From positions 1 through 59,428 of IMG/VR virus record IMGVR_UViG_2866649352_000001: a stretch of DNA of 59,428 nt, one strand, 5' to 3'. A program made the translations under genes and the position numbers. Within the stretch, counting starts at the first letter, position 1. The number at the start of each line of letters is the position of its first letter. Origin of the DNA: a virus. The notes below the pieces were generated by a model that searched no databases, was not told the origin of the DNA, and worked only from the letters and a program-made list of their open reading frames with translations. This document shows positions 1-59,428 of this stretch, in pieces.

Positions 1-127
1 GCAATCCACCCACACAAGACGCTCCACGCCTATACCCTCCTTGACCTGCCAAAACACCCGAGCGGAGAGTGTGACATGTCCAGATTTGACCAGCGACGAC
101 GGACTCGATTGTGACAGGACTGTGACA
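1..127. repeat. Terminal direct repeat identical to 59302..59428 (127-bp window-end overlap)
   Basis: Bases 1-127 (gcaatccaccc...ggactgtgaca) recur verbatim as the last 127 bases, so the unique unit is 59,301 bp and circular or circularly permuted. Confidence 0.95.
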
Positions 128-186
128 CCAACTGTGTCACGGACTCTGCCCTGCTCAGAGCTTACTTCTTTCCTCCGAACGAGGGT

Positions 187-212
187 GAACCCCCGGATGT
201 CTCCGGGGGTTC
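187..212 (-). terminator. Stem-loop 3' of the BldC-like gene
   Basis: gaacccccgga-tgtc-tccgggggttc forms an 11-bp stem directly after the minus-strand stop at 218. Confidence 0.6.
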
Positions 213-217
213 ATGCG

Positions 218-418
218 CTACTCCGACGTCTCTGGCTCTCCGTGGAGGAAGGCGAGCACCTCGGACTCGCGGTACCGGCGGTGGCCACCGGCCGTCCGGA
301 TGGAGTTGATCTTTCCCGCCTTCGCCCACCGCGCCACCGTCTTGGGGTCAACGCGGAACAACGCTGCCACCTCGGCTGGAGTCAGCAGGGGCTCGATCGT
401 TGGCGTGTATTTCGGCAT
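218..418 (-). CDS. BldC-like small MerR/excisionase-family DNA-binding protein (66 aa)
   Basis: MPKYTPTIEPLLTPAEVAALFRVDPKTVARWAKAGKINSIRTAGGHRRYRESEVLAFL closely matches my recollection of Streptomyces BldC (EPLLTPAEVA..FRVDPKTV.RWAKAGKL.SIRT.GGHRRYRE.EV). Start chosen at the ATG preceded by AGGAGA; the longer ORF 218..508 has no RBS. Confidence 0.8.
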   Translation of the reverse strand: MPKYTPTIEPLLTPAEVAALFRVDPKTVARWAKAGKINSIRTAGGHRRYRESEVLAFLHGEPETSE

Positions 419-600
419 GGGTCTCCTGTCGTACATGCGAAGGGACCCCGCCGTCCCGGCGGGGTCCCAGCCGCTAATGATCTCGCTGCGATCCGATCGA
501 TAAACCACCTACCTCTCCTGCGAAGGGTTGGAGCCTCCGGACGTGCCAGCACTGGGGTTTGCCCCAGTCCAAGGGGCGTGCACAGCACGCCCGGAGGAGT

Positions 601-975
601 TCATGCCGCCCACCACTCCACGAAGACGATCTTTCCCTTAGGAGCGGTGTACTTGGTTCCCCAGCAGTTGACGATCTTGTCCACAGTCAGGAGACCCCGG
701 CCGGATTCGTCGAACATGCCGATTTGCTGAGGGTCGCGCTTCTCGGGCGGGATAGGGGAGGCGTCCCAGACCTCTATGCCGTAGACGCCGTCCTCGAAGT
801 AGGCGTCTACCCAGAACGAAGTGGTCTCGCCGTGCCGAATCGCGTTGGTCGCCAGCTCGGAGGCGACTAGCTTTACCAGGTGTACGTCGAGTGGCCAGCC
901 CTGGCTCTCGGCGATCTTCGCCACGTGATCACGAGCGGCTTTGACGTTGACTAGATCCGCGTCGAGTTCGATCAC
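601..975 (-). CDS. Anti-sigma-factor-like ATP-binding protein (HATPase_c_2 type), WhiJ-locus-associated class
   Basis: The motifs LVASELATNAIRHG ... FDESGRGL ... fit a GHKL/SpoIIAB-like kinase fold. GTG start at 975 is preceded by GGAGGGAGG. The upstream part of ORF 601..1167 looks non-coding. Confidence 0.7.
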   Translation of the reverse strand: MIELDADLVNVKAARDHVAKIAESQGWPLDVHLVKLVASELATNAIRHGETTSFWVDAYFEDGVYGIEVWDASPIPPEKRDPQQIGMFDESGRGLLTVDKIVNCWGTKYTAPKGKIVFVEWWAA

Positions 976-1109
976 TTCGGCCTCCCTCCTGCTGTCCGTG
1001 AGTCTGGCAGCGCCTTGACACACGTGCGATGCTGTCCGACAGCGTTGACAGCACTTCTTTGAGGAGGGCCCGGAGAACTGTGGCACGTGACCTAGACCCA
1101 AGCTCCAAC
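976..1109. promoter_or_regulatory. Divergent intergenic control region between the ATPase and XRE genes
   Basis: Two TTGACA hexamers (1015-1020, 1045-1050); a 13-bp palindrome GCTGTCCGACAGC (1031-1043); a half-site GCTGTCCG repeated at 991-998. Confidence 0.4.
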
Positions 1110-1877
1110 ATGTGGGACTGGATCGCGATCCAGCTCCGACATGAGCGAGAGAAGCAGAACTGGTCAACGGCGCAGGTCGGACGCCTGCTGAACACTGACC
1201 GGTCGAACATCACGCACATCGAGGCGGGGAGGCGGCACCTCGCCGCAGATCAGGCCGCCAAGCTCGACACCGCGTGGGACACGGGGGGCCGCTTCGCCCA
1301 GATGGTGGACTACGCCCAATCGACGTATCACCCTGACTGGAACCGGGAAAGGCGGACGTACGAGCAGAACGCGACCGCAATCAAGACGTTCCACGCAACC
1401 CTCATCCCTGGGTTGCTCCAAAGCGAGGAGTACGCGCGTGCAGTCTTTGTGGCAGGTGGACGAGCGGATGTCGATGCAGCGGTGGCGGCGCGTCTGGCGC
1501 GACAGGAGGTCCTGAAGCGCCCTGGCGTGAGGCTCTGGGTGCTGCTGGATGAGGCGGTGCTGCTTCGGCCGGTTGGTGGTCCGGCCGTCTGGGCACGCCA
1601 GCTCTCCCATCTACTGAATGCCTCGGAGCAGCCCGATACCGTCCTGCGCATCATCCCATTGGCCTACGGTGAGTACCCTGGTATGGACGGCCCCATAACC
1701 ATTTTCACCATGGACGGCAAGGACGTGGCCTGGACGGACGCTCGGTCCGGGGGTCGGCTGGTGACGGACCCGGCAGCGCTGGACCGATACCGGGTTGAGT
1801 TCGACATGATCGGAGCCGACGCCTTGAGCCGGACTGAGTCGCGACGGCTGCTGACTGAGAAACTGGAGGCATTGTAG
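1110..1877 (+). CDS. XRE-family HTH regulator with DUF5753-like C-terminal domain (WhiJ-like)
   Basis: N-terminal HTH (WSTAQVGRLLNTDRSNITHIEAGRR). The C-terminal ...FHATLIPGLLQSEEYARAV...ARLARQEVL... is typical of Streptomyces WhiJ/Scr1-type XRE proteins. Start taken at ATG 1110. Confidence 0.75.
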   Translation: MWDWIAIQLRHEREKQNWSTAQVGRLLNTDRSNITHIEAGRRHLAADQAAKLDTAWDTGGRFAQMVDYAQSTYHPDWNRERRTYEQNATAIKTFHATLIPGLLQSEEYARAVFVAGGRADVDAAVAARLARQEVLKRPGVRLWVLLDEAVLLRPVGGPAVWARQLSHLLNASEQPDTVLRIIPLAYGEYPGMDGPITIFTMDGKDVAWTDARSGGRLVTDPAALDRYRVEFDMIGADALSRTESRRLLTEKLEAL

Positions 1878-2059
1878 TGATCCACTGGAGGAAGTCTTCG
1901 CGCAGCGATTCGCGTGGAGAGTGTGTCGAGCTGGCCGAGCTGGACAGCTCTGTAGGCATCCGAGACAGCAAGAACCCGGACACCCCCCACCTCACTGTCG
2001 GCCGCGAGGCCCTGTCGGGCCTCCTCAGCCGGATCAAGGCCGGCGAGTTGGACCTGTAG
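1877..2059 (+). CDS. DUF397 domain protein
   Basis: WRKSSRSDSRGECVELA....VGIRDSKNPD.P.L is the DUF397 signature. GTG start overlaps the XRE stop (TAGTG), indicating translational coupling. Confidence 0.8.
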   Translation: MIHWRKSSRSDSRGECVELAELDSSVGIRDSKNPDTPHLTVGREALSGLLSRIKAGELDL

Positions 2060-2067
2060 AACCGCTT

Positions 2068-2088
2068 GACCGGCCTCCAGGGCCGGTC
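2068..2088 (+). terminator. Stem-loop after the DUF397 gene
   Basis: gaccggcc-tccag-ggccggtc lies 9 nt after the stop. Confidence 0.5.
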
Positions 2089-2222
2089 CTAGGCTTCTCT
2101 GTGTGAGGCCGTCACCGTTGCGGCCTAGCAGTTTGGACTTTGGTTCACCTAGCTCGACCCAATCCACGGCCTCACCCCAAGAACCTCCCCTCCGGGGGAG
2201 GTTTTTTGGCTATTCTGGGCTC

Positions 2223-2504
2223 ATGAAGGGCAGAATCCTCCTTTTCGGGGCAGTTTTGGCCGTTGCGACGGCCTGTGGGGCGTCTCAGGACGACCAGATC
2301 GTCATGAAGGACCCATCCAACGGGAAAGAGCGGACCTTCAAGGAGGTCCGAGACATGTTCGCGGACGGTTCGGTCACGACCGGAGGCGAGTCCTGTGCCA
2401 CTTTCGTGTCGTTCGGGGCCAAGGACCAGGGGATCGAGTTCCCGGCCGGACAAGCTGAGTTCGTGAAAGCCTGCGAAGAAGGCTTGAAGGCCAAGTCGAA
2501 TTAG
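2223..2504 (+). CDS. Secreted lipoprotein (93 aa)
   Basis: MKGRILLFGAVLAVATAC is a signal peptide plus lipobox (A-T-A-C). Start taken at ATG 2223 inside ORF 2103..2504. Confidence 0.6.
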   Translation: MKGRILLFGAVLAVATACGASQDDQIVMKDPSNGKERTFKEVRDMFADGSVTTGGESCATFVSFGAKDQGIEFPAGQAEFVKACEEGLKAKSN

Positions 2505-3539
2505 GAATGGCTGAAATGGCCTCTGAACGAGTCTCGGCCCGGACTCGTTCCCTCTCCACCCGGATTAGCCCTGAGGCTCTTAGGAGCCGAATGAGCGCCA
2601 TTTAGAGGCATATGGGACTCCGCGGGGAGTCCCGGTTTTACCATTTCGTGATCTTGGAAGTTTTCCGAGGTGGGATAAGGAATTTTGGTGACGAAACGAC
2701 TACGTTTCGCACTTTCTATTTTCGTACATTTCCGGAGAGGGGAGACGAGTCTCTCCCGCACCCCCGGACGAATGAAGGTACCCCCCCAGGGGTAGGCTGA
2801 CCTGCGGCAACACACTCCCACGCGTGATCACCCTCACTGTATGTGACAGTCATCACTCAATCACATTCAGTGCACGCCGTGCACTGTGATCTGCGCTAAC
2901 ACCATGTGAGTGTGTCACTCACATCATCAACAGTGTGTAGCCACATTGAGTGCATACCTCACGCGCATATGCGCACATGTGCGCACGCGCGGATGAATAA
3001 ACCACGCGCGTACGCGATTAACACACACCTCGCCATTGTGCCAACACCCTCTAAACGGCTCTCAGAGGGCCCGTGAGCGCTTGAACCCCCATTCCCTAGT
3101 CCCACTATGGCCCTGGCCCTATTCGCTGCCTGCCTGGTTAGGGGCACTATTCCTACACTCGGTAATCGACCCCTCACGGGGGCCGATGCTCCCTGGCTCG
3201 GTATCTCGGTTCGGTAACGAAACGCTGCCAGCACCCAAACCCTGCCAAGTGAGCGTCAAGTGAGCTTCCCTCGCGCGTACGCGCGCGAGAGGGAGGCTCG
3301 CGCGTGCGTTGGTTCTTTCATCCGGGCGGGCCGGGACACGCTCCCCGCTCCACGGAGCGTAGTTTCAGAACTCTTTTCAGTGAGTTTCTGAGCCCTGACC
3401 TGGAGAAACGCAAGTCCTCTAAAATATCTTGCTCTTACCTATTGTGACCTGCGGAAACGACCTAAAGCCGCAGGTCAGAAGAACGCACAACCTGTTAAAA
3501 CAGGGTGTTAGCACGTCGTGTGTTTGCTAGCTTTTCGGT

Positions 3540-3925
3540 TGTCAGCAACACGGACCGCCACCACGGGGCCCGGGAAGCAGACGGAGGAACGAAACCCGGC
3601 AACGACGACCGGGAGGGCAGGGACCAAACCGAGGTTCGCGAAGATGCCCATAGTCAGCCGTAGACACTTACGGGCAGGCTCGAACGGAACGTTGGGAAAC
3701 GTGCCGGGCGCGAAAGTGGCGCTTGAAGCCTCGTGAGAAAAATCGCGGGTGAACTAGATGGCTTCGCGGACTATGGCCGGTAGGTCGCCAGCCCAAAGGT
3801 AGCGGGTGAACACGCGCTTACCGTGGGAAACCACCGCCGAAAGGCGGTAGGTCCGGCGGTAACTAGGCAGTCGTACCCGGCGTAAAGCCTTCAACTCAGA
3901 CGCTCGGAAAGTCCTCTGACCAAAG
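3540..3925 (+). ncRNA. Candidate structured RNA or long structured leader (unclassified)
   Basis: Plus-strand GNRA-capped helices: cggaacgtt-GGGA-aacgtgccg (3685-3706), gtgg-GAAA-ccac (3823-3834), cgcc-GAAA-ggcg (3835-3846), a GAAA-containing loop at 3708-3722. Further helices at 3595-3613 and 3658-3673. Internal repeats GCGGGTGAAC x2 and GGTAGGTC x2. No convincing ORF. Confidence 0.25.
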
Positions 3926-3933
3926 GATGGATC

Positions 3934-4266
3934 ATGTACCAACGTCAGATGCAGCGTCCGGACTTCGACGCCAAAAAAGACTTCTCCCAAGCGGAACCTA
4001 CTGACCGTCACCACTACCGGAATAACGGTCTGGGCCGCAGGATGCTCCACCTGTCCAGCGGTAAGGGTACGCGTACGGGAGTGGGCGAGACTAAGCCGTT
4101 CACGGCTGCTCGTAAGTCTCCCCGTAAGCAGAGTTCCGCGCCAAAGGGCTACCCGCCCGCGCGGATGTCGAGTCCGAAGAATGCCGCAGCGCACGAAAAG
4201 CGTATGGCGACGCTTCGCGAACGTCACCCGGACGTTTACGCCCGAATGATGCGTGAAGCCAGCTAG
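3934..4266 (+). CDS. Hypothetical basic protein (110 aa)
   Basis: ATG preceded by AAAGGATGG and followed by a clear terminator. Arg/Lys-rich. Preferred over the antisense ORF 3754..4227. Confidence 0.5.
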   Translation: MYQRQMQRPDFDAKKDFSQAEPTDRHHYRNNGLGRRMLHLSSGKGTRTGVGETKPFTAARKSPRKQSSAPKGYPPARMSSPKNAAAHEKRMATLRERHPDVYARMMREAS

Positions 4267-4279
4267 TACTGTCCGATAA

Positions 4280-4308
4280 AGGCCGACCCTTTTGGGTCGG
4301 CCTTTTTC
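4280..4308 (+). terminator. Intrinsic terminator
   Basis: aggccgaccc-ttttg-ggtcggcct followed by TTTTT. Confidence 0.75.
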
Positions 4309-4322
4309 CTTTGGGAGGGTTA

Positions 4323-4550
4323 ATGGACCTCGCGTTCAGTCCCGGCTACTTCCCGAACGACTTCGGGGGGACGGACATCCTGACCGGCAACGGGGAGTTC
4401 TGTGGCCGGACTGGTCGAACCAAGTTCGACACGTGGGCCGCCGCCATCCCCGATGGGGCGGGTTCGATCGCCATTCTGGGGGCCAACTTCGAGACGGACA
4501 ACGATGCACAGGTGTGCATCTTCCGTGCCCTCGCGAAAAGGGGCTACTGA
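4323..4550 (+). CDS. Hypothetical protein (75 aa)
   Basis: ATG after GGGAGGG; stop overlaps the next start (TGATG). Confidence 0.55.
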   Translation: MDLAFSPGYFPNDFGGTDILTGNGEFCGRTGRTKFDTWAAAIPDGAGSIAILGANFETDNDAQVCIFRALAKRGY

Positions 4551-4705
4551 TGAACCTCGGCAAGCTGAACCGCGACAAGCTGATCGAGGCCGCCGCTAGG
4601 CGCGGCATCCCAGTGGAGGAACTGGAGAAGGCTCTACGGGAGAACAAGACGCTTGTCGCACGTCACGGCGCGACGCATTCGGCCACTTTTTTTGGCCAGT
4701 TTTAG
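4550..4705 (+). CDS. Hypothetical protein (51 aa)
   Basis: MNLGKLNRDKLIEAAARRGIPVEELEKAL...; coupled start. Confidence 0.5.
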   Translation: MNLGKLNRDKLIEAAARRGIPVEELEKALRENKTLVARHGATHSATFFGQF

Positions 4706-4724
4706 CAGGTCGTTAGCAGACCAT
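4692..4724 (+). promoter_or_regulatory. Conserved promoter-like element, copy A (divergent)
   Basis: T-run, TTGGCC, 16-nt spacer, and tandem 11-mers TAGCAGGTCGT TAGCAGACCAT. Same architecture as the copies at 43069, 47564 and 51408. Confidence 0.45.
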
Positions 4725-4854
4725 TAGTGATGAGGTCTCGTGCCTGTCATCTCGACTAGGCCGAAACGTACGCCCATTGCCGTACGTCGCACGCTGACAT
4801 TGCGTGCCCGATGAGTGCCTGTCATCGGTCCGGAAAACCTTCAGGAGGATTTCC

Positions 4855-5049
4855 ATGGTGATCGTGGACCAGAAGTTCAACATGCCGGTCGGCTCCCTGG
4901 TGGAGGACGTCGATTACCCGCAGGACGGGGTATTCCGTATCACCGAGCGGCCTCACACCACGGCATACGGCACCGAAGTGGGTGTCGTGAACGCTGCCGG
5001 AAGGCGGTTCACGGACTACGCGATCTTCTTCAAGCCGCTCGCCCGGTAA
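4855..5049 (+). CDS. Hypothetical protein (64 aa)
   Basis: ATG preceded by CAGGAGGA. Confidence 0.55.
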   Translation: MVIVDQKFNMPVGSLVEDVDYPQDGVFRITERPHTTAYGTEVGVVNAAGRRFTDYAIFFKPLAR

Positions 5050-5077
5050 TGACGAGCCGTTGGCTTGTGTCCACTGA

Positions 5078-5410
5078 ATGACTCGTCTGGTCATGGATGA
5101 CGTGCGGGATTACCCAAACGAGCCATGGCCGTTTAAGCCATTCAACGTGACAGGAGGGCAAGTGAAGTACGGGTACGAGGTCATTTACGTCGAGCCTGGC
5201 GAGGGCGTGGAAGTCGGGTCAACAGGTCGAGTCTTCGACACCATGAAGGAAGCCGCGGAAGAACTGAGCGTGATCTACGGCGACAACGAGATCCTTCAGG
5301 TGACCTTTACCGTCCACCCCAACCGGGTCATTACCCGGAGGGAAGTCGTCCGCGAAATCGCGGAGATGCGCGGACTGTCCGTCACGGAGTACTACCAGCG
5401 CACTTCCTGA
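5078..5410 (+). CDS. Hypothetical protein (110 aa)
   Basis: ORF track; coding-like composition. Confidence 0.55.
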   Translation: MTRLVMDDVRDYPNEPWPFKPFNVTGGQVKYGYEVIYVEPGEGVEVGSTGRVFDTMKEAAEELSVIYGDNEILQVTFTVHPNRVITRREVVREIAEMRGLSVTEYYQRTS

Positions 5411-5436
5411 CAACACACCAGATGGAGGGATGACAT

Positions 5437-5613
5437 ATGGCCAAGCAGGGCGCCAAGGGTAAGAAGATCGGGCGGAACAAGGTGAAGTGCGAGCGCTACC
5501 GCGCGAAGGGGACGCGGGAGCAGAACAAGGAACGTCGTCGGCTGAAGCGAGAGGGAAAGCTCGCTGTGCGCAAGATGCTGCGTGAGGCCGCCGAGCGGGT
5601 GGACGCCGCGTAG
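5437..5613 (+). CDS. Hypothetical highly basic protein (58 aa; below ORF-track cutoff)
   Basis: Hand-translated: MAKQGAKGKKIGRNKVKCERYRAKGTREQNKERRRLKREGKL...; ATG after GGAGGGA. Confidence 0.45.
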   Translation: MAKQGAKGKKIGRNKVKCERYRAKGTREQNKERRRLKREGKLAVRKMLREAAERVDAA

Positions 5614-5618
5614 CGATC

Positions 5619-5747
5619 ATGTGCCACGTCTACATCGATGAAAACTGGACCGTCCAACGGGACGAGTGTGACTACCCGGAGGACGACTACTGCCCAACTC
5701 CCGAGGAGTTGGACGAGATGGAGTGGGAGGCCACGGAAGGGCTCTGA
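5619..5747 (+). CDS. Hypothetical acidic protein (42 aa; below cutoff)
   Basis: Hand-translated: MCHVYIDENWTVQRDECDYPEDDYCPTPEELDEMEWEATEGL; followed by a terminator. Confidence 0.35.
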   Translation: MCHVYIDENWTVQRDECDYPEDDYCPTPEELDEMEWEATEGL

Positions 5748-5766
5748 CGAGTCGTCGGATCTCATC

Positions 5767-5797
5767 GAGGCACCTGGTGATACCCAGGTGCCTCTTT
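5767..5797 (+). terminator. Intrinsic terminator
   Basis: gaggcacctgg-tgatac-ccaggtgcctc followed by TTT. Confidence 0.7.
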
Positions 5798-5832
5798 GCA
5801 TTCTTACGAATCGTTTCTACTGAGGAGATGAG

Positions 5833-5994
5833 ATGAGCGACTACCGATGGAACGGCGCCTACATGCCGGGCGCCAGGAAGGTCAACGGCAACAAGGGCAT
5901 CATGCGTGCCCTGAAGAAGCTAAAGCGTCAGCAGGCCGAGACGCGGAACGCGCAGACGCCGGCCGAACGTCGGCGCAAGAACCGGGTGGCCTGA
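5833..5994 (+). CDS. Hypothetical basic protein (53 aa; below cutoff)
   Basis: Hand-translated: MSDYRWNGAYMPGARKVNGNKGIMRALKKLKRQQAETRNAQTPAERRRKNRVA; GAGGAG upstream. Confidence 0.4.
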   Translation: MSDYRWNGAYMPGARKVNGNKGIMRALKKLKRQQAETRNAQTPAERRRKNRVA

Positions 5995-5995
5995 G

Positions 5996-6784
5996 ATGGT
6001 CGTTTCTCTGGTGAAGGACTACGTCCACACCTTCCCGTACCCGTATGACGACCTCTGGTTCAAGATGTCGCCTGCGTTCCGCTTCCTGGTGGACAGCGGC
6101 GTGATCGACCTGGAGAAGGGCGCCGAGATCCCTTACCGGTGCGAAGGCGTAGACGAGATCGCCTTCGAGCTGGACGGGCCGTGGTCGGGTTCGGACTACT
6201 CCGGGGATGACATCACCGAGTCGAACCAGCGATCCCTGGCCCGTGACTACAAGGACATCGTGATCGACTCCACGAGGTACTGGGGCCACAGCCCCTACGG
6301 CCTCCAGGTGGACGTCTACTTCGGATGGGGTGAGAACGCCGATCACGCCATGGACCTGGCCGAGAACCTTGTCAGCCTGAAGCACGACTACCCGTTGTAC
6401 GACGAAGAGGACAACTCCAAGCTGCTCGACGAGCGCGCGGAGCGGGCGTGGGACGGATACATGGAGTCGGACATCGCGTCCGACATCGAGAAGCGTCTCG
6501 GGATCGATCTGGATCTCAGGACGGACAAGGCCGGTGAAATCTTCTGGGAGACGTGCAGCGATCACGAGATTTACCCAGAGGCCGAGGGACACCGAGACGT
6601 CCTCATGCGGGGGACCGGTGATGAGGAATTCCAGATCGATCTGGCGCGGCGTGTGCTGGAAGCACAGGGGCCCGAGTTCCCCGACTACCTCTACGACCTG
6701 ACGGACCTCGGTTACGAGGTCCTGGCCGACTACATGGTGAAGCAGTTCGAGGGCCAGTGCCCTGGCCAGATGAGCATTCTCTGA
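5996..6784 (+). CDS. Hypothetical acidic protein (262 aa)
   Basis: Long ORF, Asp/Glu-rich; no family recognised. Confidence 0.6.
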   Translation: MVVSLVKDYVHTFPYPYDDLWFKMSPAFRFLVDSGVIDLEKGAEIPYRCEGVDEIAFELDGPWSGSDYSGDDITESNQRSLARDYKDIVIDSTRYWGHSPYGLQVDVYFGWGENADHAMDLAENLVSLKHDYPLYDEEDNSKLLDERAERAWDGYMESDIASDIEKRLGIDLDLRTDKAGEIFWETCSDHEIYPEAEGHRDVLMRGTGDEEFQIDLARRVLEAQGPEFPDYLYDLTDLGYEVLADYMVKQFEGQCPGQMSIL

Positions 6785-17721: not shown

Positions 17722-18051
17722 ATGGCTACTGAGATCAAGACGCTTCTGCTCGACGACATTGACGGCTCCGAGGCCAAGGAGACGATCACCTTCAGCTTGG
17801 ACGGGGAAAGTTTCGAGATCGACCTGAACGACAAGAACGCGGCGAAGCTGCGTAAGGCCCTGCACCCCTTCATGGAGAAGGGACGTCGGCAGAAGGCCAC
17901 CAGGCGACCGGCTGGGACGAGCAAGCCCGACGCCAGTCGGGAGCGGAACCAGGAGATTCGGCAGTGGGCGAAGGACAAGGGGATTAAGGTAAACGAGCGG
18001 GGCCGGATCCCGATCCACATCGTGCAGCGCTACGAGGCCGCGAACTCCTGA
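17722..18051 (+). CDS. lsr2: Lsr2-like nucleoid-associated protein
   Basis: N-terminal LLLDDIDGSEAKETITFSLDGESFEIDLNDKNAAKLRKAL, a basic linker, and C-terminal IRQWAKDKGIKVNERGRIPIHIVQRY (AT-hook-like RGR). This is the classic Lsr2 two-domain layout. Confidence 0.85.
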   Translation: MATEIKTLLLDDIDGSEAKETITFSLDGESFEIDLNDKNAAKLRKALHPFMEKGRRQKATRRPAGTSKPDASRERNQEIRQWAKDKGIKVNERGRIPIHIVQRYEAANS

Positions 18052-37341: not shown

Positions 37342-37415
37342 TGGTGACCCCGGCGGGAATCGAACCCGCACCACGAGGGTGAGAACCTCGCAACCTCCCG
37401 TTAGTCCACGGGGCC
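37342..37415 (-). tRNA. tRNA-Glu (CTC)
   Basis: Hand-folded cloverleaf: acceptor GGCCCCG/CGGGGTC, anticodon loop TTCTCAC, T-loop TTCGATT, CCA encoded. Confidence 0.8.
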
Positions 37416-37416
37416 G

Positions 37417-37490
37417 TGGCTCCAGGACAAGGATTCGAACCTCGATTGCCGGGTTCAGAGCCCGGCGTCCTACCGTTAGACGATCCTGGA
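37417..37490 (-). tRNA. tRNA-Gln (CTG)
   Basis: Acceptor TCCAGGA/TCCTGGA, anticodon loop CTCTGAA, T-loop TTCGAAT, G73, CCA encoded. Confidence 0.8.
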
Positions 37491-37495
37491 ATGAG

Positions 37496-37568
37496 TTGGC
37501 TAGGCAGGAGTCGAACCCGCACCTTGCGCTTTAGGAGAGCGACGCTCTGTCCATTGAGCTACTAGCCA
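37496..37568 (-). tRNA. tRNA-Arg (CCT)
   Basis: Acceptor TGGCTAG/CTAGCCA, anticodon loop CTCCTAA, T-loop TTCGACT. Confidence 0.75.
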
Positions 37569-37569
37569 G

Positions 37570-37652
37570 CGGAGAATCAGGGATTCGAACCCCGGACGGT
37601 TTTACCCGCGACGGCCTAGCAAGCCGCTGCCATACCATTTGACGAATTCTCC
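37570..37652 (-). tRNA. tRNA-Ser (GCT), class II
   Basis: Acceptor GGAGAAT/ATTCTCC, anticodon loop TTGCTAG, long variable arm, 83 nt. Confidence 0.7.
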
Positions 37653-37653
37653 A

Positions 37654-37728
37654 TGGAGCCCCACACCGGAGTTGAACCGGTATCCTCTGATTGGAAGTCA
37701 GACATCATTGCCGTTAGACCAGTAGGGC
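37654..37728 (-). tRNA. tRNA-Gly (TCC)
   Basis: Acceptor GCCCTAC/GTGGGGC (one G-U), anticodon loop CTTCCAA, T-loop TTCAACT, CCA encoded. Confidence 0.75.
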
Positions 37729-37794
37729 AAGTACACTCTTTGGCTCCGCCGCATGTATGTCTGCGGACTTTGACGGGTAGAGTGCGGACCTTTG

Positions 37795-37867
37795 AGCCCC
37801 TACGAGGTGCTGCCCCCCGCTTTCCTGCTTACAAGGCAGGTACATTCGCTGATATGTTATAAGGGCT
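37795..37867 (-). tRNA. Candidate non-canonical tRNA-Thr (TGT)
   Basis: 73-nt element with an 8-bp acceptor AGCCCTTA/TAGGGGCT, D stem ACAT/ATGT, a perfect anticodon arm CCTGC-CTTGTAA-GCAGG and T stem CGGGG/CCTCG. The T-loop is GGCAGCA (no TTC) and the D-loop has no GG. Confidence 0.35.
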
Positions 37868-37935
37868 GGTTTTCCCACCAGGACCCATAGTCCCTCCATC
37901 TCCTCAGGGTGCTACCCCTCGGATTAACGGGAACG

Positions 37936-38022
37936 CGGAAAGCGGAGGACTCGAACCCCAACAGCAATGCCATCCACCCGTTTTCGAGACGGGGGCCGCA
38001 CCCACAGGCGACATCACTTTCC
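37936..38022 (-). tRNA. tRNA-Ser (CGA), class II
   Basis: Acceptor GGAAAGT/GCTTTCC, anticodon arm CCCGT-CTCGAAA-ACGGG, T-loop TTCGAGT, 87 nt. Confidence 0.7.
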
Positions 38023-38066
38023 ATCGCACGTCGATATTTTTACACGCCTCGACGGCGGGGCGAGAG

Positions 38067-38139
38067 TTGGTCATGTGGGAATTGAACCCACCATCTTCCG
38101 CGTATCAGACGGATGCTTTCACCACTAAGCTAATGACCA
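38067..38139 (-). tRNA. tRNA-Ile (GAT)
   Basis: Acceptor TGGTCAT/ATGACCA, anticodon loop CTGATAC, T-loop TTCAATT. Confidence 0.7.
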
Positions 38140-38141
38140 AG

Positions 38142-38215
38142 TGGAGCCTGAGAGATTCGAACTCTCGGCCTCTGGTTTGCAAGACCAGCGCTCTAACCAT
38201 CTGAGCTAAGGCCCC
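38142..38215 (-). tRNA. tRNA-Ala (TGC)
   Basis: GGGGCCTTAGCTCAGATGGTTAGAGC..., anticodon loop CTTGCAA, T-loop TTCGAAT, A73. Confidence 0.85.
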
Positions 38216-38610
38216 ATGTACTTTCCTGCGCAAGACCTACCGCAGAACGGTCCGGCCTTGCCTTGCTTCCTGTTGTGTCGCACCTTGCGAGCTTCCTTCT
38301 TTGAAGGCGTCTCACAGACAGGGCAGATGAACTCATACCACTCGACGCTCAACCTCAGAGCTGCACTCTTCTTTGCGTTCTCAGAACGAGTGAGCACGGC
38401 AAGGTTGCTGAGATCGTCGTTGGTCTTGTCCTCGTCGATGTGGTCAACGGTTTCGTCCGTGTCGAGCACCCGGCCGAGATGCTGTTCCATCAGGTGCCGG
38501 GAGTAGAGCTTGGTTGTGCGCTTGCCGTTGTCAGTAAGAACCACGTACCTACGCCCGGCAAGCGGTCCACTGTTGTGGACGTAAGGGCCGTTGACCCTGA
38601 GCATAGACAC
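38206..38610 (-). CDS. HNH homing-type endonuclease inserted in the tRNA array (134 aa)
   Basis: The motif ...VDHIDEDKTNDDLSNLAVLTRSEN... is HNH; C-terminal CPVC...C..SC. The last 10 nt, including the TAG stop, are the first 10 nt of tRNA-Ala. Confidence 0.8.
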   Translation of the reverse strand: MSMLRVNGPYVHNSGPLAGRRYVVLTDNGKRTTKLYSRHLMEQHLGRVLDTDETVDHIDEDKTNDDLSNLAVLTRSENAKKSAALRLSVEWYEFICPVCETPSKKEARKVRHNRKQGKAGPFCGRSCAGKYMGP

Positions 38611-38623
38611 GATCCTTTCGAAG

Positions 38624-38696
38624 TAGGCTCGGAGGGACTCGAACCCTCACTACACGGTTTCTAAGACCGCTCTCTCTACCATTGGAGTACGAGCCT
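38624..38696 (-). tRNA. tRNA with anticodon TAG (Leu codon CUA/CUG) but class I (short variable arm) body
   Basis: Acceptor AGGCTCG/CGAGCCT, D-loop AATGGTAG, anticodon arm GCGGT-CTTAGAA-ACCGT, 5-nt variable loop GTAGT, T arm GAGGG-TTCGAGT-CCCTC, A73. Confidence 0.65.
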
Positions 38697-38704
38697 AAGA
38701 AAAT

Positions 38705-38729
38705 ATGGGGTTGGTGGATTCGAACCACC
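38705..38729 (-). pseudogene. Orphan tRNA 3' half (T arm plus acceptor 3' strand) without a matching 5' half
   Basis: Perfect T arm GGTGG-TTCGAAT-CCACC followed by AACCCCA. No complementary TGGGGTT occurs in the next 100 nt (38730-38801), which instead forms GC-rich hairpins. Confidence 0.4.
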
Positions 38730-38801
38730 TCGCGTACCGCAGAGCCAGCCGCTTTCCCATGTGTCCGCGTCCGGACGCCCCGCCCGCCGTCGCGGGCTTT
38801 G

Positions 38802-38875
38802 CTGACCATGCAGGACTCGAACCTGCACCACCGGGATTAACAGTCCCGCGCACTACCTAGTTATGCTAATGGCCA
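38802..38875 (-). tRNA. tRNA-Asn (GTT)
   Basis: Acceptor TGGCCAT/ATGGTCA, anticodon arm CGGGA-CTGTTAA-TCCCG, T-loop TTCGAGT. Confidence 0.8.
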
Positions 38876-38920
38876 TTGAAGAGAAAATGAGGGGGCGCTA
38901 GCTTCCCCCTCATCATGATG

Positions 38921-38993
38921 TAGGTCCACCAGGATTCGAACCTGGACAACTCCGGGTAAGAGCCGGATGCACTGGCCGTTATGCTATAGACCC
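38921..38993 (-). tRNA. tRNA-Lys (CTT)
   Basis: Acceptor GGGTCTA/TGGACCT (two G-U), anticodon arm TCCGG-CTCTTAC-CCGGA, T-loop TTCGAAT. Confidence 0.75.
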
Positions 38994-39049
38994 ATGACGT
39001 AGGCTGTACCGTGCTACGCCCCACGGGAGGGGATTTACAGAACCCTCAG

Positions 39050-39122
39050 TGTGACTCCCAGGAATCGAACCTGAGACCTGCCGGGCTTCAACCGGCCGCT
39101 CTTCCAACTGAGCTAGAGCCAC
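39050..39122 (-). tRNA. tRNA-Phe (GAA)
   Basis: GTGGCTCTAGCTCAGTTGG..., anticodon arm GCCGG-TTGAAGC-CCGGC, T-loop TTCGATT. Confidence 0.85.
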
Positions 39123-39123
39123 A

Positions 39124-39198
39124 TGGAAGCGCCAACGAGATTCGAACTCGTATGAAGCAGGGTTGCAATCTGCTGCCTCACCATTCAGCCATGGCGCT
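39124..39198 (-). tRNA. tRNA-Cys (GCA)
   Basis: Acceptor AGCGCCA/TGGCGCT, anticodon loop TTGCAAC, U73 discriminator, CCA encoded. Confidence 0.75.
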
Positions 39199-39202
39199 TC
39201 GG

Positions 39203-39277
39203 CGATCCGTACCGGATTCGAACCGGCAACCTTCGGCGTGACAAGCCGATGCTCTAACCTGATTGAGCTAACAGACC
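39203..39277 (-). tRNA. tRNA-Asp (GTC)
   Basis: Acceptor GGTCTGT/ACGGATC (G-U pairs), anticodon arm TCGGC-TTGTCAC-GCCGA, G73. Confidence 0.75.
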
Positions 39278-39282
39278 GAGAG

Positions 39283-39354
39283 TACCCGTTCCAGGATTCG
39301 AACCCGGATTCCGAGGTTCGTAGCCTCGTGCTCTATCCGTTGAACTAAACGGGC
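39283..39354 (-). tRNA. tRNA-Arg (ACG)
   Basis: Acceptor GCCCGTT/AACGGGT, anticodon arm CGAGG-CTACGAA-CCTCG, T-loop TTCGAAT. Confidence 0.8.
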
Positions 39355-39406
39355 ATAGAGCAGGCGGAGCCTGCTCCAAGAGGGGACAACCTACGTTGTC
39401 CCTGAG

Positions 39407-39479
39407 GGTGACCAGAGGGAGTTGAACCCTCGCCTACAGGATCACAACCTGTCGTGCAAACCCTTTACACCTTGGCCAC
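39407..39479 (-). tRNA. tRNA-His (GTG)
   Basis: Acceptor GTGGCCA/TGGTCAC, anticodon arm ACAGG-TTGTGAT-CCTGT, C73; no encoded G-1 seen. Confidence 0.75.
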
Positions 39480-39481
39480 AG

Positions 39482-39553
39482 TAGATCCTCTTGGATTCGA
39501 ACCAAGGCCAACCTGTTTGTAGGACAGGCGCTCTTCCGCTGAGCTAAGGATCC
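39482..39553 (-). tRNA. tRNA-Val (TAC)
   Basis: Acceptor GGATCCT/AGGATCT, anticodon arm CCTGT-CCTACAA-ACAGG, with C rather than U at position 33, which is atypical. Confidence 0.65.
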
Positions 39554-39579
39554 ATAAGCACGGCGGAGCCGTGCTGACG

Positions 39580-39652
39580 TCGCGGACGCCTGGAGTTGCA
39601 CCAGGGGCCTTCGGGTTATGAGCCCGCTGCTCTACTACTGAGCTACGCCGCG
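39580..39652 (-). tRNA. tRNA-Met-type (CAT); initiator, elongator or Ile2 identity unresolved
   Basis: 5' CGCGGCG TA GCTC...; anticodon arm GCGGG-CTCATAA-CCCGA (three G-C pairs next to the loop); T arm CCTGG-TGCAACT-CCAGG (non-canonical loop); acceptor 3' strand CG(T)CCGCG needs one bulged T. Confidence 0.55.
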
Positions 39653-39710
39653 TAGTGGCTTTTGACCGGAGCCTCCAACCGGAACGATTCTTATGGCGTC
39701 GATCTACCCG

Positions 39711-39783
39711 TATACCCAGAGGGATTCGAACCCCCACCCCCGTGGTCCCAAACCACGTGCTCTAGCCATTAAGCTACGGGTAT
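39711..39783 (-). tRNA. tRNA-Pro (TGG)
   Basis: Acceptor ATACCCG/TGGGTAT, anticodon arm CGTGG-TTTGGGA-CCACG, T-loop TTCGAAT. Confidence 0.75.
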
Positions 39784-39926
39784 ATGTTTGTGGGCTGGTG
39801 AGTCTGTCAAGTACTCACACTTAGCTGTGAACAGAGCCCACTGAAATCCGGACCTCACATGCTGACGGAGTCAGCAGGCTTGAACCTGCAAGCTCCGCTT
39901 GCATGTAAGGGAACGGATGGTTTAAG

Positions 39927-39999
39927 CACGACGGGTAGGACTCGAACCTACACACACTGGTTTTGGAGACCAGCGCTCTTCCAATTGAGCTACCGACGC
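39927..39999 (-). tRNA. tRNA-Trp (CCA)
   Basis: Acceptor GCGTCGG/CCGTCGT (one U-U mismatch), anticodon arm CTGGT-CTCCAAA-ACCAG, G73. Confidence 0.7.
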
Positions 40000-40000
40000 A

Positions 40001-40083
40001 TGGTGCGCAGGGTAGGAGTCGAACCTACACAGCCAAGGGCGCCTGGTTTACAGCCAGGGCGACTCGCCAATGTCCGCCTACGC
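40001..40083 (-). tRNA. tRNA-Tyr (GTA), class II
   Basis: Acceptor GCGTAGG/CCTGCGC, anticodon arm CCTGG-CTGTAAA-CCAGG, 13-nt variable arm, CCA encoded. Confidence 0.75.
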
Positions 40084-41390: not shown

Positions 41391-41426
41391 TTACAGCAGC
41401 TTGATAGCAGTGTGTTAGCGTCAGCC
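41391..41426 (+). promoter_or_regulatory. Conserved promoter-like element, copy E (divergent)
   Basis: ACAGCAGCTTGA TAGCAGTGTGT TAGCGTCAGCC shows 11-nt phasing as in the other copies; lies 60 nt upstream of the HTH gene. Confidence 0.35.
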
Positions 41427-41486
41427 TGCCAAGGGCCCATCGGGCCCAGACCAGCTCTGACCCCCACAAGCGAGGTGTGCTTCCCC

Positions 41487-41963
41487 ATGGCCCGACCTAG
41501 GAAGGTAGAAGACGAAGTACTCGTCCAAATGGTCCTGGACGAGATCCCTTACGCCGAAATCGCGAGTGAGGTCGGCGTGACGATCTCTGGCGTGAATCAG
41601 AGAGTTCGCCAACTACGGCGAGCGGGCAAGCTCCCGCCCGTGAAGTACGTGGACCATAAATGGGCGATTCCGTGGACCATCGCCACTGAGCACCAGAAGA
41701 ACCGGGTTGCGATGTATCTACGGTGGCTTTCCAGGACGGCCCAGGGCGATGAAATCCTCCAGGAGAATCGCAACACTGCGCTTAGGTGGGCCCAGACGCT
41801 AGTAGACGAGAATCGCGACGTCGATTATGACCGAGACGCGCCACCAAACGATCTGAGCAAGCAGGGGGGATTCTTCCTCAGGGAGGCAGACCCTGAGAAT
41901 TGGCACCTGAAGATGGTTTTGGACAAGGCCAAGGCAGGTGTCCTCAAGAACAAGAAGCGCTGA
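41487..41963 (+). CDS. HTH DNA-binding protein (158 aa), first gene of the rightward block
   Basis: IPYAEIASEVGVTISGVNQRVRQLRRAG is an HTH of sigma-region-4/LuxR-like shape. Confidence 0.55.
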   Translation: MARPRKVEDEVLVQMVLDEIPYAEIASEVGVTISGVNQRVRQLRRAGKLPPVKYVDHKWAIPWTIATEHQKNRVAMYLRWLSRTAQGDEILQENRNTALRWAQTLVDENRDVDYDRDAPPNDLSKQGGFFLREADPENWHLKMVLDKAKAGVLKNKKR

Positions 41964-50923: not shown

Positions 50924-51388
50924 TTGACTGACAACCCGTTTGAGACCGACAAGCCGGCCGACCCGTGGTCTGACGGCCCCGCCGAGCAGCCCGCCGAAGA
51001 GACCACCCCCGTTGAGGTCTCCGCGACCGTCAAGGCGGGTTCGGGTTATGACGCCCCCTGGCTGGTCGCCCGAGGGCCGAGCGCCAAGGCGATCGTTGCC
51101 GAGATGCGAACCTGGTTCGGTGAGGGCGGCCTGATCCACGCCACGGCCGAGACGGCGAAGGCGTTCAAGAAGGTCACTGGTAACGACAGGCCCGCCGCGA
51201 GTGGCGGGGCTGCTCCATCGCAGCGCTCGCCACAGTCCTCGCTTCCGCCTGGTGTCGAGCCTAAGTCGTGCCAGCACGGCGAGATGGTCTTCCGCAGTGG
51301 AACCAATGCCAAGGGCACGTGGAAGGGCTTCTTCTGTCCGACGCCCAAGGGCACCGAGGGCCAGTGCAAGCCGACCTTCATCAAGTGA
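50924..51388 (+). CDS. Hypothetical protein (154 aa) with C-terminal Cys motif
   Basis: TTG after TAAGGAGA; C.HG...FFCP...GQC. Confidence 0.5.
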   Translation: MTDNPFETDKPADPWSDGPAEQPAEETTPVEVSATVKAGSGYDAPWLVARGPSAKAIVAEMRTWFGEGGLIHATAETAKAFKKVTGNDRPAASGGAAPSQRSPQSSLPPGVEPKSCQHGEMVFRSGTNAKGTWKGFFCPTPKGTEGQCKPTFIK

Positions 51389-57045: not shown

Positions 57046-57428
57046 AGTTTGACAGGCTGGAGATCTTCGTGCCGGACGGCGACGATGATGTTGCGTTCGA
57101 CCTCGACCCGTGGGGCGGCGTCGCCTCCGTGTATGTGAAGCGAGACGAGCTTGTGAAGGCCCTTCAGGACCTCGGCATTGTCCCCGCCAACACCGAGGAG
57201 AACTACGGCTTCTACGGAGCCGTTCTGAAGTACGTCCGGGAGAACTGGGATTCGGACGCGGTAAAGATTCTCGATGTCCGGCAGGAGACCCGAGAGACGG
57301 GTTATTGCGAGACCTGCTACGAGAAGTACGACGTCGTTTACGTCGACTACGAGGACAAGTACGGCGACAGGGAGTCCGACTGGTATTACGGCGACATGGA
57401 AGAGTTCATGCGGAGGCTGACGGACTGA
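57033..57428 (+). CDS. Hypothetical acidic protein (131 aa)
   Basis: ORF track. Confidence 0.55.
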   Translation: MASVKFDRLEIFVPDGDDDVAFDLDPWGGVASVYVKRDELVKALQDLGIVPANTEENYGFYGAVLKYVRENWDSDAVKILDVRQETRETGYCETCYEKYDVVYVDYEDKYGDRESDWYYGDMEEFMRRLTD

Positions 57429-57601
57429 TGACCGTTGAGGAAGCCGTTCAGGCGCTCTTTGAGATTGACAACGGCACAGGCGAGGCCGACCCCGAGTTGG
57501 CCCATGGCGAGGCCGATTACGTCCTGTATCAGTTCGCGCCTGCTGAGGTTCAAAAGGCTTACGACGACCTTTGTGACCGAGTTACTTTCTGGTACGCGTA
57601 G
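57428..57601 (+). CDS. Hypothetical protein (57 aa)
   Basis: TGATG coupling. Confidence 0.4.
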   Translation: MTVEEAVQALFEIDNGTGEADPELAHGEADYVLYQFAPAEVQKAYDDLCDRVTFWYA

Positions 57602-57609
57602 GAGGCTTT

Positions 57610-57777
57610 GTGAACGACCACGACGAAGCCCACCTCTACTCCGACAGTGATGACGAAGGCGTTGAGATCTGTGATGCCTGCGGGGACATTGTTGATGTGG
57701 GCGAACTGAAGTTCGACGAGGACTCGGACATGTACGTCTGTGATGAGTGTCTGGAGAATCCGCCCGATGACATGTGA
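57610..57777 (+). CDS. Small acidic zinc-ribbon protein (55 aa; below cutoff)
   Basis: Hand-translated: VNDHDEAHLYSDSDDEGVEICDACGDIVDVGELKFDEDSDMYVCDECLENPPDDM; TAGGAGG RBS. Confidence 0.4.
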   Translation: MNDHDEAHLYSDSDDEGVEICDACGDIVDVGELKFDEDSDMYVCDECLENPPDDM

Positions 57778-57784
57778 TCCGCTG

Positions 57785-57955
57785 ATGACCCTCCAGGAGA
57801 CAGCAGATTACCTTCACATGTCCCGATCCTGGGTTTACGAGAGAATCCACTCCATCCCCAACTTCAAGGTCGGGGGTAAGCGTCTGTTCCGTAAGAGTGA
57901 AGTGGACAAGTGGCTTGAGGCTTTCCGTAAGGGAAGTCCGCTAGCCCTCCTGTAA
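57785..57955 (+). CDS. xis: Excisionase-family HTH protein (56 aa)
   Basis: MTLQETADYLHMSRSWVYERIHSIPNFKVGGKRLFRKSEVDKWL is an Xis/MerR-type winged helix; convergent with int. Confidence 0.7.
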   Translation: MTLQETADYLHMSRSWVYERIHSIPNFKVGGKRLFRKSEVDKWLEAFRKGSPLALL

Positions 57956-57962
57956 AGCAATT

Positions 57963-57995
57963 GGCCCCACCGGTTTCCGGTGGGGCCCTTTTTTT
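57963..57995. terminator. Bidirectional terminator between xis and int
   Basis: ggccccaccgg-ttt-ccggtggggcc followed by CTTTTTTT. Confidence 0.8.
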
Positions 57996-57999
57996 GTGT

Positions 58000-59211: not shown

Positions 59212-59301
59212 GTCCCTCCAGCTCAACTGTGACAGGAACTACAGCATACGCGCTCCGTCGCCGTGTCGAACGAGGTCAGAGGGATGTGGATCTTGCTTCT
59301 A
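59212..59301. other. attP-candidate intergenic region (continues across the circular junction into 1..186)
   Basis: About 300 bp of non-coding sequence next to int. It contains CTGTGACAGG (59227-59236), TTGTGACAGG (109-118), GTGTGACATG (69-78) and the inverted repeat GTGACAC-N5-GTGTCAC (122-140). The core was not identifiable. Confidence 0.3.
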
Positions 59302-59428
59302 GCAATCCACCCACACAAGACGCTCCACGCCTATACCCTCCTTGACCTGCCAAAACACCCGAGCGGAGAGTGTGACATGTCCAGATTTGACCAGCGACGA
59401 CGGACTCGATTGTGACAGGACTGTGACA
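59302..59428. repeat. Second copy of the 127-bp terminal overlap
   Basis: Identical to 1..127. Confidence 0.95.

Follow-up and report, generated by a model that had tools for sequence, protein, structure and literature searches.

What is a gene cluster with the layout of the Streptomyces whiJ locus doing beside the integrase gene of a phage? The window analyzed here is the whole 59,428-nucleotide stretch of IMG/VR virus record IMGVR_UViG_2866649352_000001, and the element in question is a triad of genes at positions 601 to 2,059: a minus-strand gene for an anti-sigma-like ATPase, a divergent gene for a regulator with an XRE-type helix-turn-helix (HTH) and a DUF5753 domain, and a DUF397 gene coupled to the latter. 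The initial annotation of this DNA, made from the letters alone, likened the triad to the whiJ locus and offered three possible roles for it, namely the immunity switch of the phage, a lysogenic conversion device directed at host development, or an exclusion system of the toxin-antitoxin (TA) or abortive infection (Abi) type. We give an approximately even chance to the reading that the phage captured the triad, a complete WhiJ/AbaA/BldB-type cassette, from the lineage of its host, and that the triad serves as self-contained, probably lysogen-expressed cargo beside the integrase gene (int), acting on sigma-factor or developmental control in the host. This corresponds to the second of the three roles, which fits best among them and stands as a proposed rather than an observed function.

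The three family assignments of the initial annotation were borne out, and all matches lay above the Pfam curated cut-offs. The ATPase matched HATPase_c_2 (38.4 bits, E value 1.5e-9) and also HATPase_c, the regulator matched HTH_31 (36 bits) and DUF5753 (174 bits, E value 2.5e-51), and the third protein matched DUF397 (65.8 bits, E value 3.9e-18) and carries CxE (as CVE) and RDS, the motifs of the DUF397 domain (Kaur et al. 2020). The regulator aligned end to end with cellular WhiJ-like proteins and fell into phrog_9908; against the NCBIfam Sco1979-family model it scored 128 bits, under the equivalog cut-off. The overlap that had been proposed to couple translation of the two plus-strand genes is present as well, with the DUF397 start overlapping the TAG of the regulator by 1 nt (TAGTG at 1875-1879). 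In gene families, order and orientation the cassette is the same as the whiJ locus (SCO4542-4544) and the other abaA/whiJ/bldB clusters, including iosA-whiJ9-bldB9, and like them it has a repeat-bearing intergenic region. It differs in lying on a circularly closed temperate phage genome and not on a chromosome, in being only 35-47% identical to the cellular copies, and in its repeats, which are TGACAG/CTGTC with an inverted pair, whereas the WhiJ9 repeats are CGxxCTCAAC and direct. The coordinates of the triad and of the other features discussed are given in Table 1.

Table 1. Positions of the triad, its control and termination signals, and other features of the window
Feature	Position	Strand	Details
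AbaA-like, SpoIIAB/RsbW-fold ATP-binding-type protein, 124 aa	601..975	-	GTG start 975; AGGAGGGAGG ribosome-binding site
Divergent control region, 83 bp	976..1058		TGACAG/CTGTC half-sites 991-996, 1016-1020, 1032-1036, 1038-1042, 1046-1051; palindrome CTGTCCGACAG
WhiJ-like regulator, XRE HTH + DUF5753	1059..1877	+	start TTG 1059 (272 aa) or GTG 1080 (265 aa); NCBI start 1110
BldB-like DUF397 protein, 60 aa	1877..2059	+	GTG start, GGAGG 8 nt upstream; phrog_10815
Intrinsic terminator	2184..2207	+	CCTCCCC-TCC-GGGGAGG, then T-run; closes the regulator-DUF397 operon; from terminator scan
Two G+C-rich hairpins	554..591	-	directly 3' of the ATPase stop, ahead of the bldC-like gene; no U-tract
BldC-family MerR-like regulator, 66 aa	218..418	-	ATG 418, ribosome-binding site GGAGA; same strand as int and the ATPase gene
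Tyrosine integrase	58000-59226	-	Pfam Phage_integrase, 63 bits; next to the triad side via circularity
int-bldC intergenic region	1..217, joined to 59227-59301 on the circle		TGTGACA repeat cluster
HTH_17/excisionase-type protein	57743-57955	+	convergent with int; Pfam HTH_17; TIGR01764 'excise' 41.7 bits; PHROG excisionase families
HTH protein, 183 aa, candidate immunity repressor	41412-41963	+	PHROG 'transcriptional repressor' 357, 3929; weak HTH_24, Sigma70_r4_2
Lsr2 homolog	17722-18051	+	dimerization and DNA-binding domains both present
L5/D29 gp49 homolog (mycobacteriophage)	50924-51388	+	in the replication arm
tRNA array, 20 genes (ARAGORN)	37342-40083	-	2 further Rfam candidates; between the structural and replication arms
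Probable small lipoprotein gene	2223-2504	+	signal peptide ends VATAC

One detail of the initial annotation did not hold, since the regulator does not begin at ATG 1110 but upstream of it. The motif (A/R)xLDPxxSxWxW, which is conserved in the homologs at the N terminus, is encoded upstream of that ATG; in a codon-by-codon alignment, TTG 1059 falls opposite the ATG of a 77%-identical homolog (locus L006); and AlphaFold modeled regulator residues 8-17 at high confidence. Together these place the start at TTG 1059 or at the alternative GTG 1080, preceded at 4-5 nt by a GGAG. The AlphaFold2 model of the regulator had a predicted local distance difference test score (pLDDT) of 93.6, and comparison of its DUF5753 part with PDB gave no significant match. 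A nuclease role for DUF5753 was considered and rejected, as the best PDB matches, to phospholipase D (PLD)-type nuclease domains, were weak (E value 2e-3, template modeling (TM) score 0.37) and the family is without an invariant His or Lys. Three natural fusions of XRE-DUF5753 with DUF397 in a single open reading frame (ORF) were found on IMG/VR contigs (L008, 1460-2536; L014, 1837-2937; L023, 3480-4949), and on this Rosetta-stone evidence we predict that the DUF5753 and DUF397 proteins of the cassette are in physical contact.

The start of the ATPase gene was set at GTG 975 because this codon has a strong ribosome-binding site and gives an N terminus, MIELDA, in common with the best homolog (P0122, 43% identical). 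Relatives of this protein, which belongs to PHROG 12354, were few (26 matches, best identity 43%), and it retains all the residues that are invariant in the family, namely the SELATNA N-box, Asp71, the SGRGL G2 box and Lys115. A sequence-only search of PDB gave no significant match (E value approximately 0.7). The best PDB structural matches of its AlphaFold2 model (pLDDT 91.6) were SpoIIAB, RsbW and M. tuberculosis UsfX, at TM 0.67-0.76. Like these, the ATPase is a Bergerat-fold single domain of similar size whose model keeps the N-box Asn, the G1 Asp and the G2 GxG, but it has D-A-S-P instead of the G1 DxGxG, a short lid, and no sigma or STAS gene nearby. Judged by the model, the label 'anti-sigma-like' is structurally justified, and nucleotide use is uncertain. 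RNA folding of minus-strand positions 500-610, which include the hairpins that follow the gene, gave -53 kcal/mol (z = -2.3), and these hairpins are a possible terminator or attenuator. With the terminator after the DUF397 gene on one side and the hairpins after the ATPase gene on the other, the triad has the layout of an autonomous insert.

The two TTGACA hexamers (1015-1020 and 1045-1050) and the 13-bp palindrome (GCTGTCCGACAGC, 1031-1043) that had been pointed out between the divergent genes are present. We rejected the hexamers as -35 boxes, because neither has a recognizable -10 and the first reads GTGACA in L006. That substitution leaves TGACA(G) as the conserved core, and by their sequence the hexamers look like TGACAG/CTGTC operator half-sites. 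The control region aligned closely with the region upstream of the L006 regulator, and the alignment takes in the first two codons of the divergent gene together with its ribosome-binding site. Yet that gene (L006 25-237, minus strand), which occupies the position of the ATPase gene, encodes a 70-aa protein of no known family that is unrelated to the ATPase. Because so much of the upstream DNA is shared while the encoded proteins are unrelated, the comparison indicates that the regulator-operator unit may have been kept while the regulated cargo was swapped; the L006 DUF397 partner is 51% identical to that of the phage. Cargo is interchangeable in S. venezuelae also, where iosA stands under whiJ9. 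Throughout the phage genome, clusters of half-sites (4 in 70 bp) occurred only at 991-1051 and at 1943, the latter within the DUF397 gene. The TGACAG motif was absent from the intergenic regions of two chromosomal triads with 43-44% identity (L004 and L005), and conservation of the operator-like region is visible only in L006.

Apart from L006, the nearest regulators were 40-47% identical and came from Actinomadura, Actinoallomurus and Spirillospora genomes or from soil contigs. The best regulator homologs as a whole came from Actinomadura, Actinoallomurus, Spirillospora and Streptomyces, all of which fit the restriction of WhiJ/AbaA/BldB-type clusters to morphologically complex actinobacteria. 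The same triad was present in four of the five contexts inspected among the 40-47% relatives (L004, L164, L165 and L166, by precomputed Pfam matches), which agrees with the whiJ-like architecture proposed at the outset; L004 has four DUF397 genes in tandem. In the fifth context (L005), the divergent gene encodes 141 aa without a Pfam match on record, but it matched our local ATPase profile. The neighbors of triads of this kind look chromosomal, for example nonribosomal peptide synthetase genes and two-component systems. Copies from phages were more distant, with 27-32% identity for Success gp6/gp7 and Samy SAMYPH_91/90 and at most 39% for the IMG/VR loci. Because the chromosomal triads are closer than the other phage-borne copies, the cassette looks, on sequence comparison, like one acquired from the host lineage (Thermomonosporaceae) and not like a member of a phage-specific clade.

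How often do phages carry such genes? An alignment query retrieved 75 regulator loci from IMG/VR (a single-sequence regulator query retrieved none), of which 48 had an adjoining DUF397 gene and 16 the triad. PHROG annotation of the flanks of four of these triad loci gave few phage hallmarks, so that the 16 IMG/VR triads cannot be counted as 16 phage-borne triads. An integrase lay within 6 kb in 28 of the 75 loci, which is about what is expected for a 12-kb window on a genome of approximately 40 kb, and we claim no enrichment. The full triad was not found in the INPHARED phage records, where the phages with ATPase matches (Gilgamesh, SF1 and SF3) differed from those with regulator matches, and BFVD held one structural match, from phage Nesbitt. 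The survey of phages that had been suggested initially did reveal the XRE/DUF397 pair near an integrase in Samy (SAMYPH_91/90) and Success (gp6/gp7), in the same PHROGs, 9908 and 10815, as in the cassette. Unlike the phage studied here, these two lack a divergent HATPase_c_2 gene; the domain is absent from Success gp5 and from Samy 92/93. No report of a phage-borne whiJ/abaA/bldB cluster was found in the searchable literature, which agrees with the initial statement that no phage copy had been characterized as to function. As sequences, however, phage copies of the pair were already deposited (Success, Samy), the Samy pair is expressed, and all three families have PHROG entries. The cassette is thus a canonical cluster in a new and well-defined context.

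The phage itself is a circular actinophage genome whose true length is 59,301 bp, since the first 127 bp of the 59,428-bp contig (1-127) are repeated exactly, and in the same direction, at its end (59302-59428). The identical ends imply a circular molecule written linearly, and int therefore adjoins the left end. The placement of the triad next to the integrase that the initial annotation had assumed is accordingly correct on the circle, although in the linear window the integrase lies at the opposite end. The regulator as encoded at 1110-1877 was 100% identical to a protein from Actinomadura sp. KC216, and the window is the entire genome contig of a temperate phage of that strain, not of a Streptomyces phage. 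Its phage genes include a large terminase, a 1,319-aa ORF of tape-measure size, a CHAP/peptidoglycan-binding endolysin and an HNH endonuclease, and the replication genes a family-A DNA polymerase, a class II ribonucleotide reductase and a DnaB-like helicase. Megablast of positions 1-6000 against 50,697 phage records gave zero matches, and relatives of the integrase in GTDB genomes were only from Firmicutes and other distant groups, with at most 34% identity. By these results it is a temperate actinophage without close sequenced relatives.

Two other genes bear on the proposed role in the host. The small gene between the triad and int, easily taken for an excisionase gene, belongs to the BldC family: its product scored 100.9 bits against NCBIfam NF033787 HTH_BldC (cut-off 77), is approximately 75% identical to S. 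coelicolor BldC (E value 2.5e-26; PDB 6AMA, also 6AMK), and is 70-85% identical to many chromosomal BldC orthologs. BldC delays entry into development, according to the title of PMC6428758. The phage also encodes an Lsr2 homolog, which is 54% identical to an Lsr2 on an IMG/VR locus that itself bears the triad (L016). WhiB-like, Lsr2-like and BldC-like regulators of actinophages (for the last, D29 gp36, reported to be BldC-like) represent the same theme of acquired actinobacterial developmental and nucleoid regulators. Together, the BldC-family neighbor and Lsr2 strengthen the host-directed reading.

Under that reading, we predict that the XRE-DUF5753 protein would bind the TGACAG/CTGTC repeats within the 83 bp between the divergent genes and control its own operon and, above all, the ATPase promoter. 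The coupled DUF397 protein would bind the DUF5753 domain of the regulator, and possibly host BldB paralogs too, keeping the regulator non-activating. Once this restraint was lifted, the SpoIIAB/RsbW-fold ATPase would be produced and would take part in partner switching on a host sigma factor or a STAS-type antagonist. With the adjacent BldC homolog and the phage Lsr2, this could shift the developmental and stress program of the host, most plausibly by prolonging vegetative growth. The scheme follows what has been described in S. venezuelae, where WhiJ9 binds three intergenic repeats and is required to activate the divergent non-AbaA gene iosA, loss of BldB de-represses iosA and all abaA paralogs, BldB itself does not bind DNA but hetero-oligomerizes with its paralogs as a regulator of regulators, not a toxin, and over-expression of abaA6 blocks sporulation (PMC10294661). 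Streptomyces phages replicate in growing cells only and infection can hasten sporulation (PMC10276819), which would give a phage a rationale for encoding a developmental brake. As for expression in lysogens, SAMYPH_90 and SAMYPH_91 are among the nine Samy genes over-expressed in all ten non-inducing conditions (S3 Table, PMC11302927), although these gene names were not found in the main text of that paper.

Several observations weigh against this proposal. The G1 DxGxG box is missing family-wide among the ATPase relatives, which leaves nucleotide binding and kinase activity uncertain, and none of the phage ORFs scanned had a sigma70_r2 or STAS domain, so that a partner, if there is one, may be encoded by the host. 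A sigma-70 promoter scan of positions 1-3000 returned 0 sites, leaving the control region without a definable promoter. As a cluster, the half-sites are unusual to a modest degree only (4 were reached in 5 of 200 shuffles), and the palindrome on its own is not enriched in the genome. The BldC-like protein could merely be an excisionase (Xis) or a phage transcription factor. Finally, complete deletion of whiJ in S. coelicolor had no phenotype (PMC10294661), and the function of the cellular whiJ clusters is only partly known.

A more far-reaching form of the host-directed reading, which we consider unlikely, is that the integrase-proximal genes form an island of captured developmental checkpoint genes (BldC-, AbaA-, WhiJ- and BldB-like, with Lsr2 elsewhere). 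The DUF397 protein would enter the host BldB network by hetero-oligomerization, and hyphae that are infected or lysogenic would either be locked in vegetative growth or have their developmental state read to time excision through a co-oriented ATPase-bldC-int transcription unit.

In the exclusion role, the prophage would block other phages: the XRE protein would act as antitoxin or sensor, and the effector would be the DUF397 protein, the ATPase or both. XRE/DUF397 pairs have indeed been predicted to be mobile type II TA systems (Kaur et al.; PMC2701414), the integrase-proximal position of the cassette is moron-like, and the Samy pair is expressed in lysogens. Known cellular pairs, Scr1/Scr2 (SCO4441/4442) and 14 other XRE/DUF397 pairs of S. 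coelicolor, share XRE-DUF5753 and DUF397 with the cassette, which adds the ATPase and is phage-borne; predicted to be TA-like, such pairs behave as pleiotropic regulators. The 14 S. coelicolor DUF397 proteins and Scr2 were all non-toxic on over-expression (PMC10364602), BldB works as a regulator of regulators and not as a toxin, and PADLOC returned no significant match for any protein of the triad, the regulator HTH having only a marginal match to capH (E value 0.008). We therefore regard exclusion as quite unlikely.

The immunity-switch role fared no better. Here the XRE-DUF5753 protein would be the phage repressor, the DUF397 protein its co- or anti-repressor, and the divergent promoter the genetic switch. 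Apart from the regulator, no XRE-type HTH protein was detected in the genome outside its structural part, and the regulator's divergent arrangement beside int is the usual place of CI/Cro modules; yet its divergent partner is an anti-sigma-like ATPase instead of Cro and leads towards bldC and int, not lytic genes, and the regulator operon ends at a strong terminator before the early genes. Neither is the operator-like motif found at other phage promoters, its only other cluster being the one inside the DUF397 gene. Phages of the Austintatious type do place an XRE-DUF5753 gene next to an annotated repressor and cro, and the Samy homolog is constitutively expressed in the lysogen, but the Samy pair coexists with a distinct putative repressor (SAMYPH_32), and the phage studied here likewise has its own candidate, the HTH protein with phrog_357/3929 'transcriptional repressor' matches. 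A separate 13-bp motif, GTTCTTTCATCCG, was present in 5 copies with at most 1 mismatch and 3 weaker ones, a total of 8 that was reached by 0 of 100 shuffles; positions recorded for it are 3312, 7032 and 48808 on the plus strand and 37325, 40748 and 2990 on the minus strand. Of the best five copies, three are gene-poor or intergenic and two lie near gene ends or inside genes. GTTCTTTCATCCG recalls L5-type stoperators and is a candidate for an operator or promoter element in a circuit of the phage itself. As the nearest relatives of the cassette are moreover chromosomal triads, we consider an immunity switch very unlikely.

Equally improbable is an excision sensor, in which WhiJ-like-activated transcription would start at the ATPase promoter, pass the hairpins and reach the bldC-like gene and int, coupling excision or integration to the host BldB/WhiJ network: along the circle, the ATPase gene, the bldC-like gene and int do follow one another on the minus strand, the hairpins do lack a U-tract, HTH_17 genes stand downstream of ATPase genes in L166, L015 and L043 also, and BldB paralogs hetero-oligomerize, but the hairpins may terminate transcription, approximately 290 bp with a TGTGACA cluster, probably the phage attachment site (attP), separate the bldC-like gene from int, which may thus be non-contiguous with the triad in the prophage, and a second, likelier Xis is encoded at 57743-57955. 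That protein, by its sequence matches, is likelier than the BldC-like one to be the recombination directionality factor. As to the HTH_17 genes, their position right after the ATPase gene in L166, L015 and L043/L044 indicates that the four-gene arrangement recurs occasionally.

The TGTGACA repeats lie at 59228-59234, 70-76, 110-116 and 121-127, with an inverted TGTCACG close by. There are 4 unique copies in approximately 200 bp and 9 unique copies genome-wide; in the window as given there are 13 matches, of which the duplicated end contributes 4, versus 5.6 +/- 2.2 in shuffled sequences. They are unlike the AATTxxxx(C) BldC repeat and are probably arm-type sites of the integrase and part of attP. 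An Rfam search of 57300-59428 at a permissive threshold gave terminator-like noise only, with no tRNA-like attP core.

Several other features of the genome were recorded. The probable lipoprotein gene downstream of the triad had zero family matches and has a moron-like layout, flanked by the terminator that closes the regulator operon and by a terminator-like site at 2692-2709. Next to it, some 1.4 kb (2505-3930) contain no convincing ORF but are rich in inverted repeats and palindromes, such as 2959-2996 and the pair formed by 2983-3004 with 3310-3331. An Rfam search of 2400-4400 at E values up to 1 gave zero matches, and this stretch might serve as a regulatory hub or an origin, or encode a long non-coding RNA. 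Then come a genuine small gene (3934-4266) and, at 4275-4308, a canonical terminator. In the replication arm, the gp49 homolog is a hint of a module for replication and regulation that is distantly L5-like, and the 20 tRNA genes are an unusually high number for a 59-kb temperate phage. The 'Serglycin' matches obtained in a domain scan of concatenated ORFs were discarded as an artifact of the glycine-serine (GS) linker.

In Streptomyces and its relatives, few regulatory modules are as expanded as the WhiJ-type clusters, which number 10-25 copies per genome, and few are as poorly understood. A single isolated copy with a compact conserved operator region, together with a relative in which the cargo has been swapped, offers a cleaner system in which to test binding of the regulator to its operator, the DUF397-DUF5753 interaction and the partner of the ATPase. 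Should the cassette prove inactive on the host, it would still be evidence that phages spread lineage-specific clusters between actinomycete genomes. If it does act on the host, WhiJ, BldB and AbaA would join WhiB and Lsr2 as developmental regulators co-opted by actinophages, and the cassette would provide a mechanism for the effects of phages on sporulation and metabolite production.

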